NCBI GenBank assembly: GCA_000165345.1
Contig: CM000430.1
Coordinates: 160,001-224,000, forward strand
Reading direction: 5' to 3'
Length of the DNA: 64,000 nucleotides
The translations under genes and the position numbers were made by a program. The number at the start of each line of letters is the position of its first letter. The stretch's first letter is position 1. Of this stretch, positions 3,598 through 43,054 are shown in pieces. The notes under the pieces were generated by a model. It made no database searches. It saw only the letters and a list, made by a program, of their open reading frames with translations, and was not told the DNA's origin.

Positions 3598-4576
3598 TGC
3601 TCTTTTCCTTAAAAAGAACAAAATTTCTATTAATAATAGTTTCTTTAATTATTTCAAAAAAAAAAAACAATATATTTATATATATACTTTTGATTTATAT
3701 ATTGTTTATTTAGAATGTTAATGCATGCATAAATCTTATATTATTTATACCAAAATTAAACAAGAAGAAATGTTCAATCCAATTATTTTCCTCTTATTAA
3801 TATTATATGTATAAAATATACTTATCGATTTATTTCTTGTCCTTCTAAAACAGTAATCTTTTTGATACTCTTAACTAAGAACACAACTTGAATTATTCAA
3901 TAATCAATGATCTAATGTAAACATGTAACAACACTGATTAGTCTTTTGTATATTATATATTATATTTTGTATTCACACATTAATACATACATTCGAATAA
4001 TACTAATAAATAGTATGTATTTGTGCTAATACTTAACATAAAATATAAATATATATATATAACTAGTCCAATCAGCTGCTGTTATCTCGTACGTATAAAT
4101 GTTAAAGTTATGAAACACTTTAATTCATCTCCTATAAGACAAGACCAACAATTTAATTAAAGGGTTTGAGTTTCAACTTCTTGATAACATAAGAAAAAAA
4201 AAGTTTACTTTCTTTCTCTCCCTCTCCCACTTGTAATTCACTCACTTATTTATCTGCCTAATTTGAATATAATATAATATGAGATATATTTCATTAAATG
4301 CCCTTATATAATGATTATTTCTCCCTTAACCAAAGAAATAAAAAAAAAAGGAGAGGTAATAGAGAATGATAATTATAATAAAGTGAAAATATATAGATGA
4401 ACAGAATAAAATGAGACCCAACTCCCTTCTTTCTCTAATTCACCTTTATAATCACCTTGCTATTATTTATTAACTTTGTATATTCCAAAAGGTATTAATT
4501 TTAATCACTTTCTGTTTGTTAAGTATGTCAATTATTAGATAGGTGTTTCTTAACCTCTAATATTACATACATTAAG

Positions 4577-5498: not shown

Positions 5499-8400
5499 TT
5501 ATAAAGCTGAGAAATGTCCTAAATGTCTTATAGATGGCCTGCCATGAGGACAGTTCCAAGGCGACTTTAATGTACTCATAGTTTTAACAATACTTTTCAT
5601 CTTTGGAAGATTAAGATCATCTCCAATCATAACAGCACTTCTACAAGCTCTAAAATTAATTATTTAAGTAAAAAAAAAAAGAAGATATACGTATATGAAT
5701 AAACTTACTTGGAAGCAAGTATTGACCAAATCCTTCTTGGTCTTGGAACAATACCTGATGGACACCATAACGTGACATTAGTATTTTCTTGGTCTCCAGT
5801 TGATACTGAAATTGAGTCTTCTTTCTCTTCTTCTTCTTCCTCTTCTTCTACTTCTTCCTCTTCTTCTAATTCTTTGGTTTTCTTCTCCATTAGTTGTTTA
5901 TTTTGTCTACATTCTACACTGATATTAGAGGAAATCTGTCTTGGAAGATCTAAAATTTTTGACTTGGAATCATCAATAATAGATACTCTCACTTTATATT
6001 TATTAATTTGGGAAAGTAAATCCAAGAAATCAATTTGTTTCAATGGAATACCAAGAATTACTGGTAATTGAGTAAGTTGAATTCTAGATCCAATTTCACT
6101 ATTACTATTAAATATAAATCTGAACCCATTTTGCTCAAAGATATCTTTATAACTAATTACTAATTGTTCTTGAGACGGAGTTAAGGATACAGAAAGTGGA
6201 GAAATAAGTTTTTGAGTTTGGATATTACTTAAATCACTATTTAACTTCTCAAATCGAGCCTTTTCATCAGATGCATGTTGATCTATTATAAATATATGTA
6301 ATGATTCCATCATATTTTCCCCATTTTTTTCATTATTCTTATGATTTATGTAATTTTGTTCTTCTTTAATAGAAAGTTTTGTCAAGATAAATCCTTTGTT
6401 AAATTGTCCTATAACTTGTAATTGATTAAAGAGATGCTTCTTAAAGTTAAAACAACGATTACTACTTTGATCATTTTCGGTATCTTTTAACTCAGAAACT
6501 CCACTTTCATTTTTATGAATAATTTTAGTTATATCTTCATTGGGAAGAAACTTCTTTTCATCTCTATTGACTTTTTTTTTATTAAATCTTCCACCAAAAT
6601 GTATACAAACTCCTTTACTATTATTCCATATTCCTTCTTGTTCTGTCTTGTTATACCTCAACTCCATTATTGATTCTACTGGAATACAATTCTTTAGTCG
6701 AATCTTTGTTAAGTTCCTAGGGACTACCTGATTCAAAACAACCTTACCTTTATCCGTGTCCTTTTCCTTGTACTTTTCCTTGTACTTTTCCTTTTCCTCT
6801 TTCTCTTCATTTTCCTTGTTCTTGTCTTTGGTCTTGCTCTTATCCTTGTTTTTGCTCTTATCCTTGTTCTCATCCATATCCACATCCATGCCCTCATCCA
6901 TGTTCTCGTTAAATGAAGGCAAAACAATCTTTCTTATGTTTGAATCCTTTTCTTGATTTGTTAAAAAATCATTTGGATAAAATTCTCTCAAAGATACCTC
7001 ATCTGAACGATGCCTTTTAGTTCCTATAGTCTGATGGGATAATTCTATTGATTCCATTTTTGATTCAGAAAAAGATGTATTGCTAATTTCATCTTTATTC
7101 TCACTCTCATTATTATTTTTCTCATCCTCATTAATTTTCTTTTCTCCAAGTCTTGATGACTCCTCTGAAAAGACCAACTCTGGAGCTTTGCCAGAGTTGG
7201 ATAAATTATCAGTTAAGTGATTATAAGATAAAACAACTTTATCTTTAGGCTTTTGTGAAGAAGAAATCTGAGATTGAGAAATTTCCGTAGTTAAATGATC
7301 TTGAGATGTTGATGGATAATTTAATATACTATTCTGATAACGATTCTCCATAAATTCTTCTCTTTTTATTGGAATATTGTTCTGATAAGAATCTTGAAGA
7401 AATTGTTGTATATTTTCAGCTAATACTGTCTCAACTTTTGCTGGAAGCATAACTATTCTTTTATTTGGAGTAACATTAATATCCAATAAAGATTGGGGAA
7501 GATGAATATTAATCACAAAAGCTGGATAAAGTTTTCTATTATTAAAAGATGATAAAGTTGAATGAATTGAAGAAATTACACGAGAAATTCTTTTTATTGG
7601 ATCAACTGGCCTATTATTAACAGTAAATATTTGGTGATCTGGAGATGGTCTACCTTTATCTAATGATGATATAAAACCAGAAATAATCCATTTTCCACCA
7701 ACCAAAGACTCATCTTGTATTTTTGAATCCATATTTTGTAATTTTGGAACAAAAACTTCTCCCTCCAGTTTAAAGTCTAATGAATTCCCAAGAACAGATT
7801 TACCCCATATATACTGAGCAACTTCTTTTTGACTTGATACTTTTCCTCTTGTCATAATCAACTCTGATTGTATTTGGTTACTTTGATATTTAATTTCACT
7901 TGATTCTCCTATTAACAATCTCTTATGAATCTTCTCTTTCTCAGTATCTGAAAGTGTTCTATTTGAAAGTAAAAATCTGATCATTGGATAACATATAGCA
8001 TATTCTTCTATTAATACTATTAAAGACTTTAGTTGTAATCTTATATTTCTTAAAAATTGTGTTCTTCTTGAAATATATGGAAGAAAAAGACCAATAACTC
8101 TTATTCTTGTTCCTGATTTACTAGAAAAATGATACTTATGAAATTTATCAGAATTCTGATTTTTATTCTCTATTATTAATTCCTCTATCAGACATTTACC
8201 TTTCTCAAAAACAATTTTATTTTCCTTATTGTCATATTTTGTATCAATCTCAACAATCTCTGAACTATTAATTATTGAATTCAAACCTTCTCCTCTAAAT
8301 CCTAAAGTACTTAAATCTTCATGAATGTTATCAAAATTCTCCAATTTGGATGTTACACCTCTCTCACCAATCTTATTCAAGTCTTCTATACCTTTTCCAT

Positions 8401-8572
8401 TATCTAAAACTTCAATTGTTGATGATCCAAAATCTGTTAGAGAAATTAAAATTTCAGTACATCCAGCATCTATTGCATTATCTACTAACTCCTTAATACA
8501 ATCTTGTAATTCTGTTATTACTTGCTGACTACATATTCTATCCTGGTCCTCTTTACTCAATTTCTTTAACAT
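5499..8572 (-). CDS. PMS1: DNA mismatch repair MutL homolog of PMS1/PMS2 type. Two exons (8572..5709 and 5649..5499) with a 59-nt intron at 5650..5708
   Basis: N-terminal GHKL ATPase motifs (ELVDNAIDAG, LDNGKGI, GFRGEGL). C-terminal endonuclease motif IIDQHASDEKARFE. The track ORF ends ...ILASK with its TAA lying inside a GTAAGT donor. After TTTTAG the frame continues ACRSAVMIGDDLNLPKMK...PWNCPHGRPSIRHLGHFSAL*, which aligns residue for residue with the PMS2 C-terminus ([12 protein letters not shown]...HPWNCPHGRPTMRHI). Confidence 0.8.
6758..6905. repeat. In-frame coding minisatellites inside the PMS gene: TTTTCCTTGTAC units encoding (KEKY)n/DKSKNK, and a CATATCCACATCCATGCCCTCATCC unit
   Basis: Direct repeats visible. 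They translate to a charged K/E/D-rich linker between the ATPase and endonuclease domains. Confidence 0.7.
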
Positions 8573-8816: not shown

Positions 8817-9143
8817 TCATGTTTTTTTTTTAATATTTATTAGGAAGCCACAAGAGTGAAAGAGCATTTAAAGAAATTAATTATTTAATTAATTAAAAGA
8901 ATACAAGAAGAAAATAACACATTGAGTATTATTATATTGACAAATAGATCTGTATACAAATAACTAAATATATACATATACAAGCTTAAACAACACTCCA
9001 CACAATAGAAAAACAATAAGAGAAATTATCTCGAATAGAGATTTTTTTTTTTTTTCTCCTTCCCATGGATAAATCAGAAATATTAAATAATATCAGTTTT
9101 AGTAAATTAGGCAATTAATTTCAATAATTATTTGGGTAAAACA

Positions 9144-9953
9144 ATGAATGGAGAATTGAATAAAACCCAATATAATACAAATATAAAAACAACAAATACA
9201 GATTATTTTGACCAAATGGAGAATATTTCAGGATCAAATGTAAGAGGACGCTTGACTTACTCTGATTTACATGTCAAGGATAGCTTCTCGCATGCATATA
9301 GTAATAATAATATTACCAGATGTTCATCAAATTATAGAGAAGAAAACTTTGACAGAGATTCTGGTAGCAACATGGTAATTCTTAATGTATATGATTTAGA
9401 TGCAATTAGTGGAAGTATTAATAGATTTACAAGAGTATTCGAATTGGGAGCTTTTCATGCAGGAATTGAAATTTATGGAGTAGAATACTGTTTTGGATCA
9501 ACTAGTGATGGAAGTAGTGGTATCACAGTAAATCTTCCAAGAAGGCATCCAATACATATCTATAGAGAAAGTGTTAAGATGGGTAGAACTAACTATTCTA
9601 GGGGAGAAATTAAGAGAATTATTAACGAAATGAAGCCTTTATGGCTTGGTTCAGATTATAATATATTCAGGAGAAATTGTTTAACTTTTGCTGACGAACT
9701 TTGTATGGTTCTAAATGTTGGACAAATTCCAAATTATGTCAAACTTCTCCCTGAACTTCTTTGTCAAGCTGGAGATGGACTTGACAAAGTCACCAAACAT
9801 ATTTCAACAATTTTTGACCGTATTGCCTCTAATTGTTCTAATCTTGCAATCGTTGAAAGCGAACAAGAAGAAAAAAATGATCAATCAACGACTAATTCCT
9901 CAGGAATGTCGCCCAAAAAATTTCCTTTTGGAATTAAAAATCCCCTTTTATAA
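9144..9953 (+). CDS. PPPDE/DeSI-type putative peptidase (DUF862, desumoylating isopeptidase family)
   Basis: Motifs VILNVYDL, GAFHAGIEIYGVEYCFG and RRNCLTFADELC match the PPPDE His/Cys dyad architecture. The track start at 9132 is TTG; the first ATG is at 9144. Confidence 0.7.
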   Translation: MNGELNKTQYNTNIKTTNTDYFDQMENISGSNVRGRLTYSDLHVKDSFSHAYSNNNITRCSSNYREENFDRDSGSNMVILNVYDLDAISGSINRFTRVFELGAFHAGIEIYGVEYCFGSTSDGSSGITVNLPRRHPIHIYRESVKMGRTNYSRGEIKRIINEMKPLWLGSDYNIFRRNCLTFADELCMVLNVGQIPNYVKLLPELLCQAGDGLDKVTKHISTIFDRIASNCSNLAIVESEQEEKNDQSTTNSSGMSPKKFPFGIKNPLL

Positions 9954-38298: not shown

Positions 38299-39065
38299 TA
38301 CCTACTTTTTTTCTTACTTTATTCACTAAGCCAAGCAATAATTACTTGAGCAGTTTTCATGTATGACTAATTGGCAATTAAGCGCCAAGCAACTTTTTCG
38401 TCTCTAAATTAATATTAGTGAGGGGGAAGCCAATATAATATTAAAGAAAAAATAATCAAAATGTAAATAGATATATATATGAATGACTTGTTTTTGATAT
38501 ATTTTGGGTGAGTATTTAGCTCTGAGCATCAGTGTCCAAATAACTGTTTCCCAATGATACTTTGGGGTCGTTGTTCTTATATAAAATTAAGATTATATCA
38601 TTTGACTCAACGGTAATTATTTTTCTAAAAATAAGTTAGGAAATGAGAATTTAAGTTAAACTTGTGCGTGTGTTCAGTGAATAAACTTACTTTTTTGTTG
38701 TTTCTATAGTTATTGAAATATTCTCACTCAAAATTGAGCTTGATAAAGAACTTCTAATTTGTGTGATAGTAGAACAAAACTCTGAGACTTCATGTTTAAT
38801 ATGTTTAGATCCATATTCTGATTAATATTTAGAGATTATTTACTAGAACAGCAATAAGATTAATATAATTTACCTTGAATTGGTAGGCCTGTTTTTGTAA
38901 AAGATGCCATTCCTATGAATCCTGGTGAATTCTTTAATATCTCATAAGTAGAACTCATTTTATTAAGACTAAAAATATAAATATGCACTAAATTTGAATC
39001 TTAGAAATTTAATTATTTAATTTTTATTACTTTATTCTTGTTTCAATTCAGTCAATTAAATTCGT

Positions 39066-41209: not shown

Positions 41210-43054
41210 TTAGTCCATGTCATCGTTTTGAGAACGGGGCTTTGGACCTCCTGCAGGCTTTGCCATAATGATTTCATCTATTTTAAGAATAGTAACAGCT
41301 GAGTCTGTTGCTAATTTTAAAGCAGAACAAAGAGTGCCCAAATGATCGACAATCAATCCTACTCCCTGCTCATTATTTGAGATACAGTCAATAATTGGAG
41401 AAGTTCCAGAACCACAGAAAACATTTATTCCTTTATGTGGTTGAGAACCTTGTTGATGTATTGCATGTAGTGATGCCAGAAGATCGGTGGAGTTTAGTCC
41501 AGAATTCTCAGCCAATAGTCTTGGGAAAACGTCTAAAGCTTCAGCAAACATATTTACTGCGTACTCCTCCATTCCAGGAACAGGTACATCTACAGAATTT
41601 TGTTGGTATTTGTTTTCAGACTTATCATATGCTCTCAAGCATTTAGAAAGCTCAACAAATGTAGCCCCAGCGCCAGCAACAAATCGATTATCTTTTGTAG
41701 ATGATTTAACAACAGAGACAGAATTCGCAATAGCCCTTTCCATTTCATCCAAAATTCCCTGAGTAGCACCTCTAAGAATAACTGAGCTTACTTTGGTATT
41801 AAGAGCATTAATCACAGTGACCTTCTTCGATCCAATTTCCTCAACCCTGATAGAACTAGCCTTTCCTATTTCTTCTGGAAGAGGAACTCCCAATCTAACC
41901 ATTGCAACAGCTCCAATACTTCGGCAAATGCGCCTCAGTTCCCATTTAGATGTAATTCTTAGAGTTAATATATCGTACTTGTTGCAAAAGTGTTGTGCAA
42001 TATCAGAAATTGGACCGCCTGCGATAATAGCATCGATCTTACCGGTTTGTTTAATATCTTTAATCAAGTTTTCAACCAGAGATTCCTCACCTCTAGTAAA
42101 ATCCAAAAGCTCTTGAGCATTATTTAAAACAACTGTACCTTTCGCCTCTGTTCCAGTCATCTCTAGTCCACATCCTAAAACCATAACATTTGAGACCTTT
42201 TCCAATTTTCTTATTGTACCTCCAGGCTCTCTATTAACCATCATACCATTTATTGTAAATGATTGCATTGGGGATCCTCCCAAAAGCTTAACAATTCTTA
42301 CATTGTCTATATTGAATTCTTTTAATTTATCTTCATCTGGCATTATGCTTGTAATGGCTTCACATGTCAATCTCGTAATTAAATCAGAATATCCTATATT
42401 CTTTGTTGAAACCAAAGGCCTTACAATTCCAGATAAGTCACTAACATTCTTAAAATTAGCAACTCTATGTGCTACCATTCCATTTAGTAAAGATAATGAT
42501 CTTTCTAAGGCTATTTCATATCCTGCTACAATATCTGAAGGATGTAAACCATTATCATTAAGTAGCTTTGCAGCATTTCTTAATAATTCTCCTGCAAATA
42601 TCAAAACTGTATTGCTCGCATCACCGTACTCTTCAGCCTGCCTCTTACATGCCATTACTACCATATTTGCTGCTGGATGCTGGATATCAAGTTCTTCTAT
42701 AATTGTTGACAAGTCACTAGTGATGAACTGTTTTCCAAGATGATTCACAATTAACTTATTCATGCTATTTGGACCATATGATGTTTGAGTCATCTCACTT
42801 AAATTTACGCAAGCCTCAATATTCCTCAATACGGCCTCATCCAGGCCGGAAAATGCCCTGCTTCCATCTTTTAATAAATTTGTAATTCCTGGTCTTAATT
42901 GGAACTAAAAACAATCAGAGGAAATTAATTAATGAAAATAATAATTAAAAAAATTGACCAATAAGTAGCTCAAGCTAAAAAGAATGAAGGCAAATGGGCC
43001 ATATCGCCATGTTCACCTTATTATTGACCAATTTTTATACTCTAAACTTACCAT
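41210..43054 (-). CDS. CCT8: T-complex protein 1 subunit theta (CCT8). The first exon holds only the ATG (43054..43052); a 147-nt intron (42905..43051) precedes exon 2 (42904..41210)
   Basis: Protein co-linear with human CCT8 throughout (NIEACVNLSEMTQTSYGPNSMNKLIVNH..., GGPKP C-tail). The track start at 42829 is TTG and the frame is open upstream to a TTTTAG acceptor (FQLRPGITNLLKDGSRAFSGLDEAVLRNIEAC, matching VPKAPGFAQMLKEGAKHFSGLEEAVYRNIQAC). The in-frame TAG is the acceptor AG. The upstream sequence AAGCAATGGTAAGTTTAG places an ATG directly on a GTAAGT donor. Confidence 0.7.

Follow-up and report, generated by a model that had tools for sequence, protein, structure and literature searches.

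The window, the whole stretch of 64,000 nucleotides that we analysed, carries on its minus strand a gene for a MutL-type mismatch-repair protein, which the ORF list presents as one frame of 955 codons (Table 1). On the one hand, this frame looks complete, as it ends in ...RPRRIWSILASK followed by a TAA codon. On the other hand, this TAA sits within a GTAAGT splice donor, and a TTTTAG acceptor follows downstream on the same strand. When the interval between them is excised, the AA at 5710..5709 is fused with the A at 5649, which restores a Lys codon, AA/A, in phase 2. From exon 2 the spliced frame then reads (K)ACRSAVMIGDDLNLPKMKSIVKTMSTLKSPWNCPHGRPSIRHLGHFSAL up to a new stop codon, and the product has 1004 aa. 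The excised interval has a GC content of 15% and contains stops in all three frames, and its context, with GTAAGT, a pyrimidine tract and TTTTAG in succession, is that of the U2-type consensus. At the other end of the gene, the ATG is preceded by an in-frame stop, and the start agrees with that of all Cryptosporidium orthologues. The first-pass annotation had placed the terminating TAA inside the donor and had derived the acceptor, the length of 59 nt and a spliced product of 1004 aa with its stop at 5499-5501; reading of the minus strand and in-silico splicing reproduced each of these, with the intron in phase 2.

Table 1. Positions of the features discussed, numbered from the first letter of the window.
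Feature	Position	Strand	Remarks
PMS1/PMS2-type gene, ORF of 955 codons	8572..5705	-	as in the ORF list; TAA at 5707..5705
Exon 1	5709..8572	-	residues 1-954 and first two bases of Lys955; ATG 8572..8570; GHKL ATPase, DNA_mis_repair and MutL_C domains (Pfam)
K/D/E-rich runs KDKSKNKDKSKTKDKNKENEEKEEKEKYKEKYKEKD and EEEEEVEEEEEEEEKE	~6700..7000 and 5790..5870	-	low complexity
DQHA(X)2E(X)4E endonuclease/zinc motif, DQHASDEKARFE	6248..6283	-	exon 1; residues 764-775
QKLISP	6197..6214	-	exon 1; residues 787-792
Acidic segment	~5740..6010	-	residues ~854-945
GT-AG spliceosomal intron	5650..5708	-	59 nt, phase 2; donor GTAAGT 5708..5703; acceptor AG 5651..5650
Polypyrimidine tract, TCTTC + T11	5670..5685	-	inside intron; 16 nt
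Candidate branch region, ACTTAAAT		-	after pyrimidine tract, ~20 nt upstream of AG
Exon 2, coding part	5499..5649	-	last base of Lys955 and residues 956-1004; stop TAA 5501..5499
ACR motif	5640..5648	-	first codons of exon 2; residues 956-958
CPHGRP motif (C(P/N)HGRP)	5535..5552	-	exon 2; residues 988-993
PPPDE/Peptidase_C97 ORF	9132..9953	+	273 aa
Intron-like element	38625..38690	-	66 nt
CCT/TCP-1 theta chaperonin gene	41210..43054	-	ATG 43054..43052
Putative CCT theta intron	43051..42905	-	147 nt, phase 0

The domains of the protein are those of a complete MutL homologue. In Pfam searches, the N-terminal GHKL ATPase was recognised by HATPase_c_3 (31.3 bits, cut-off 25) and HATPase_c (31.2 bits, cut-off 26.4), and the ATPase motifs ELVDNAIDA, DNGKGI and GFRGE were all found in the window protein. 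The transducer domain DNA_mis_repair (PF01119) reached 53 bits against a cut-off of 26 over residues 289-392, and the dimerisation domain MutL_C (PF08676) reached 62.2 bits against a cut-off of 25 over residues 759-863. Comparison with these two profiles had been proposed at first pass as a check of the spliced product; both matches exceed the curated cut-offs, and the C-terminal motif is covered by an alignment to yeast Pms1, described below. Within exon 1, the peptide QKLISP fits QXX[LI]XP, the clamp or PCNA-binding motif of MutL endonucleases, and aligns to QKLIIP of yeast Pms1. Following the definition of DQHA(X)2E(X)4E and the roles of the endonuclease motifs given in PMC6048502, this motif is encoded by exon 1, and the ACR and CPHGRP motifs are present only in the spliced product. 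Since exon 2 holds both of the latter, the unspliced model loses two of the three endonuclease motifs borne by the PMS subunit. The loss of CPHGRP from the unspliced model had been pointed out before, and we find that ACR, with another metal-ligand cysteine, is lost with it.

The homology of the C-terminal part extends across the splice junction. The exon-2 peptide alone (49 aa), searched against all PDB chains, retrieved only chains of the MutL family, with yeast Pms1 as the best match (E = 8.3e-13). When aligned to 4E4W_B, the C-terminal domain of yeast Pms1, the spliced sequence crosses the junction without a gap, query positions 242-295 being paired with chain positions 172-225 (RRIWSILASKACRSAVMIGDDLN... 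in the window, SKIRSMFAMRACRSSIMIGKPLN... in 4E4W_B). Accordingly, the alignment of residues 988-993 to yeast Pms1 confirms the earlier claim that CPHGRP, the zinc-site motif of the MutL-alpha endonuclease, is encoded by the last exon. Cys957, Cys988 and His990 pair with chain positions 183, 214 and 216, which we take to be the residues C817, C848 and H850 that act as zinc ligands in yeast. The C-terminus also aligned free of gaps with PMS2 and PMS1 proteins from insects, fungi and a rotifer, and the columns of A-C-R and C-P-H-G-R-P were invariant in an alignment of 15 sequences.

The yeast Pms1 C-terminal domain (4E4W chain B; 4FMN/4FMO) matches residue for residue at DQHASDEK..FE, QKLI.P, ACR and PWNCPHGRP. 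In contrast, the dimerisation part and ACR are separated in the Cryptosporidium protein by about 90 additional, largely acidic residues, and there is an added stretch behind the FNKGFIL motif. Yeast Pms1 spans the position of the acidic segment with about 16 residues, and this segment differs in length and in sequence across Cryptosporidium species. Human PMS2 is alike in domain order and in the three endonuclease motifs (PMC6048502). The position-for-position alignment to human PMS2 claimed at first pass was checked against yeast Pms1 (4E4W_B) and against insect, fungal and rotifer PMS2/PMS1, and the metazoan PMS2 proteins among these align free of gaps over exon 2.

In terms of paralogue identity, a PDB search with the C-terminal 300 residues of the spliced protein ranked Pms1 (5.5e-30) ahead of Mlh3 (1e-10) and of bacterial MutL (E values of at least 1e-7). 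The best database matches were all from Cryptosporidium, and the best ones outside this genus bear the names PMS2 or PMS1. Cryptosporidium has been reported to possess Mlh1 and Pms1 and to lack Mlh2 and Mlh3 (PMC2488364).

We compared the locus with its orthologues from C. hominis, chipmunk genotype I, C. ryanae, C. xiaoi, C. muris, C. meleagridis, C. ubiquitum, C. canis and C. felis. Except for C. canis, whose contig stops inside the intron right behind the same AAGTAAGT, all eight loci reach far enough, and all eight have AA/GTAAGT...YAG/A in the identical Lys codon and the identical phase, so that both the position and the phase of the intron proposed at first pass are conserved in eight other species. 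In these species the flanks read ...TC[CA] AA/GTAAGT......[TC]AG/A GC. TG...., and translation through the donor terminates at once in each species that we compared. The length of the intron is variable: 59 nt in the window, 64 nt in C. hominis, 58 nt in C. meleagridis, 125 nt in chipmunk genotype I, 65 nt in C. ubiquitum, 48 nt in C. felis, 62 nt in C. ryanae, and 61 nt in both C. xiaoi and C. muris. The nine species thus cover a range of 48-125 nt that includes all three length classes modulo 3. The C. ryanae intron has a canonical TACTAAC where the window has its branch candidate. The branch point of the window intron may lie within that candidate.

Exon 2 behaves differently from the intron. 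It is 150 nt long in all nine species, and its pairwise differences among them are distributed by codon position as 247/170/888, a pattern that clearly points to purifying selection on a translated sequence. The interior of the intron is much more divergent than exon 2 in the more distant species; in chipmunk genotype I, identity is 37% for the intron interior and 87% for exon 2. The window and C. hominis share an identical exon-2 peptide.

Among the database matches, the C. hominis protein is the closest to that of the window, with 94% identity. The DNA of the C. hominis locus is about 97.5% identical to the window over the first 3.2 kb, a value at the margin of the 3-5% divergence reported between C. 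parvum and C. hominis (PMC4637869), so that the window probably belongs to C. parvum or to a very close relative. The C. hominis orthologue likewise consists of two exons, with an intron that splits the same Lys codon but is 64 nt long where the window has 59 nt. Most of the differences between the two proteins are length changes of low-complexity runs, and with the lengths of these K/E-rich runs the total varies from 1004 aa in the window to 976 aa in C. hominis and 987 aa in C. tyzzeri. The K/D/E-rich runs listed in Table 1 explain most of the protein divergence. Upstream, the ORF of a PPPDE/Peptidase_C97 protein is transcribed divergently from PMS1; C. hominis has the same divergent neighbour, and considering that it lies in the same orientation in all nine orthologous loci, the synteny is genus-wide. 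With respect to the intron itself, C. parvum introns have been described as 84-100 bp long on average with 22% GC, and about 10.8% of the genes have introns (PMC4637869); the size and composition of the window intron are consistent with these statistics.

Two-exon models that include ACR...CPHGRP have already been deposited for C. hominis (OLQ16826.1/PPA63657.1/PPS96651.1, 976 aa), C. tyzzeri (TRY53134.1, 987 aa), C. meleagridis (915 aa), C. ubiquitum (991 aa), C. felis (868 aa) and C. muris RN66 (919 aa). The C. hominis entries carry the names 'PMS1/MutL family ATPase' or 'Mismatch repair endonuclease PMS2'. In each of the five two-exon models that we checked, the deposited gene range equals exactly the sum of the CDS and the derived intron length. 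The spliced model of C. tyzzeri, TRY53134.1, presumably stems from the comparative annotation of the C. parvum IOWA-ATCC re-annotation study. According to its authors, every intron in the C. parvum IOWA-ATCC re-annotation is supported by RNA-seq (PMC8744675). We found no mention of the PMS1 gene in the supplements of one Cryptosporidium re-annotation paper. The exact products of 1004 aa and 955 aa had no identical entry in the protein collection, and a search of a collection of 5.8 billion proteins with an 88-aa query spanning the junction gave 12 candidates, none of them a Cryptosporidium protein, and hence no cDNA-derived fragment of this genus. Because two-exon models are deposited for several species, the intron is known within the genus and is not new.

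Other deposited models are truncated at ...SILASK, namely those of C. hominis UdeA01 (CUV04425.1, 927 aa), chipmunk genotype I (892 aa), C. ryanae (794 aa) and C. xiaoi (785 aa), and the model of C. canis (807 aa) is partial owing to the contig end. The DNA of the truncated models itself holds the GTAAGT...AG intron and the 150-nt last exon; in the fetched loci, the region concerned is at 4173..4451 in chipmunk genotype I, at 3879..4094 in C. ryanae and at 3852..4066 in C. xiaoi. All four truncated models could therefore be repaired by adding the 150-nt exon.

Taken by themselves, the splice motifs are weakly above chance and not convincingly significant. In the AT-rich window (31.7% G+C), the pattern GTAAGT-N35-65-TTTYAG occurs four times against 1.03 expected, a count that was reached in 4 of 100 shuffles, and GTAAGTT is found 16 times, with 10.3 expected. 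Accordingly, the case for the intron rests on the homology and on the comparative data, and the latter come close to the strongest support that DNA comparison can give to an intron. On this basis, we put the probability that the gene is a single-copy Cryptosporidium orthologue of yeast PMS1 and human PMS2, interrupted by one U2-type intron, at about 0.95. The intron is real, conserved, ordinary and already known, and it is no surprise.

We considered whether the interruption could mean something other than an ordinary intron. If there were no intron at all, the break in the frame would be an error of sequencing or assembly, or the 3' end would be a decaying pseudo-exon, and the T11 homopolymer is indeed of a sequence type prone to length errors. 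However, none of the three frames of the 59-nt interval is free of stops, and nine independent assemblies from different species share the same interruption at different lengths. Exon 2 is under purifying selection, and its peptide is unchanged in C. hominis. The recurrence with varied lengths, together with the selection on exon 2, rules out both a sequencing error and a dead pseudo-exon, so that we regard this explanation as having next to no probability; the earlier concern about a frameshift between assemblies is settled in the same way, by the interruption common to the assemblies of nine species. The choice of acceptor was a separate matter. The next AG, at 5642..5641 (TGTAG/A), lies nine bases downstream, and as the main acceptor it would give an intron of 68 nt and a junction ...SILASK-SAVMIG... 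that stays in frame. It would, however, delete the invariant ACR with its metal-ligand cysteine. This AG simply falls within the codons TGT AGA for Cys-Arg, and it is displaced in C. muris, which has TGT CGT AGA; moreover, all deposited two-exon models take the first AG. Main use of the second in-frame AG is thus extremely unlikely, and we rejected it on account of the ACR loss, in the same way as sequencing error and pseudo-exon were rejected on account of the nine-assembly recurrence and the selection on exon 2.

Somewhat less remote, but still very improbable, is a regulated retention in which a substantial share of the transcripts would keep the intron and encode a nuclease-dead, possibly dominant-negative isoform of 955 aa that has neither ACR nor CPHGRP. 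Such an isoform would retain the ATPase and dimerisation regions, including the MutL_C match at residues 759-863, and the immediate stop upon read-through is common to every species examined. Yet this stop is an automatic outcome of a phase-2 GTAAGT donor: the G of GTAAGT would complete the codon and the next triplet would be TAA, which gives the apparent stop of the ORF. As this geometry explains the immediate stop, its conservation is no sign of function. The full GTAAGT hexamer and an acceptor behind a pyrimidine tract of 16 nt also fit efficient splicing rather than retention. We similarly see very little chance that retention is specific to certain stages and supplies a conserved 955-aa isoform that would dimerise with MLH1 and be unable to nick DNA. 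If it were true, the retention isoform would lower mismatch-repair activity, for example in meiosis or in rapid merogony.

For the ordinary intron, which we prefer, splicing would almost certainly be constitutive. The spliceosome would join ...TCC AA (5709) to A GCT TGT AGA... (5649), the transcript would read ...TCCAAAGCTTGTAGA... at the junction, and the protein of 1004 aa would contain ACRSAVMIGDD... and SPWNCPHGRPSIR. In this protein, ACR and CPHGRP, with DQHA(X)2E(X)4E and the C-terminus of MLH1, would coordinate both zinc ions at the nuclease site. We consider that the protein is probably an active endonuclease and a subunit of MutL-alpha. The match of QKLISP to the clamp motif and the Mlh1 reported for Cryptosporidium (PMC2488364) may bear on heterodimer formation with MLH1 and on PCNA-activated nicking.

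Considering that Mlh2 and Mlh3 are reported to be absent (PMC2488364), the PMS1 gene would carry the only MutL-type endonuclease site of the parasite, and the single-ORF model would falsely imply that this site is missing. The value of the two-exon structure lies solely in the correction of a gene model, with no new biology.

The CCT/TCP-1 theta chaperonin gene is a second case in the window in which the ORF track misses exon structure. In the ORF list the gene begins with a TTG at 42829, although the frame is open up to 42904, just behind a TTTTAG with its AG at 42906..42905. The extension shows homology to bovine CCT8 from its residue 4 (4B2T_Q residue 8, E = 4e-42), and upstream of it there is an ATG directly followed by the donor, ATG/GTAAGT. 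This arrangement suggests a first exon that consists of the ATG only, followed by the intron given in Table 1. Elsewhere in the window, the intron-like element GTAAGTTTATTCA...TTATTTTTAG has the same first 13 bases as the PMS1 intron and is flanked by no long ORF. It may be an intron of a UTR or of a non-coding RNA, a part of a small multi-exon gene, or a chance occurrence.
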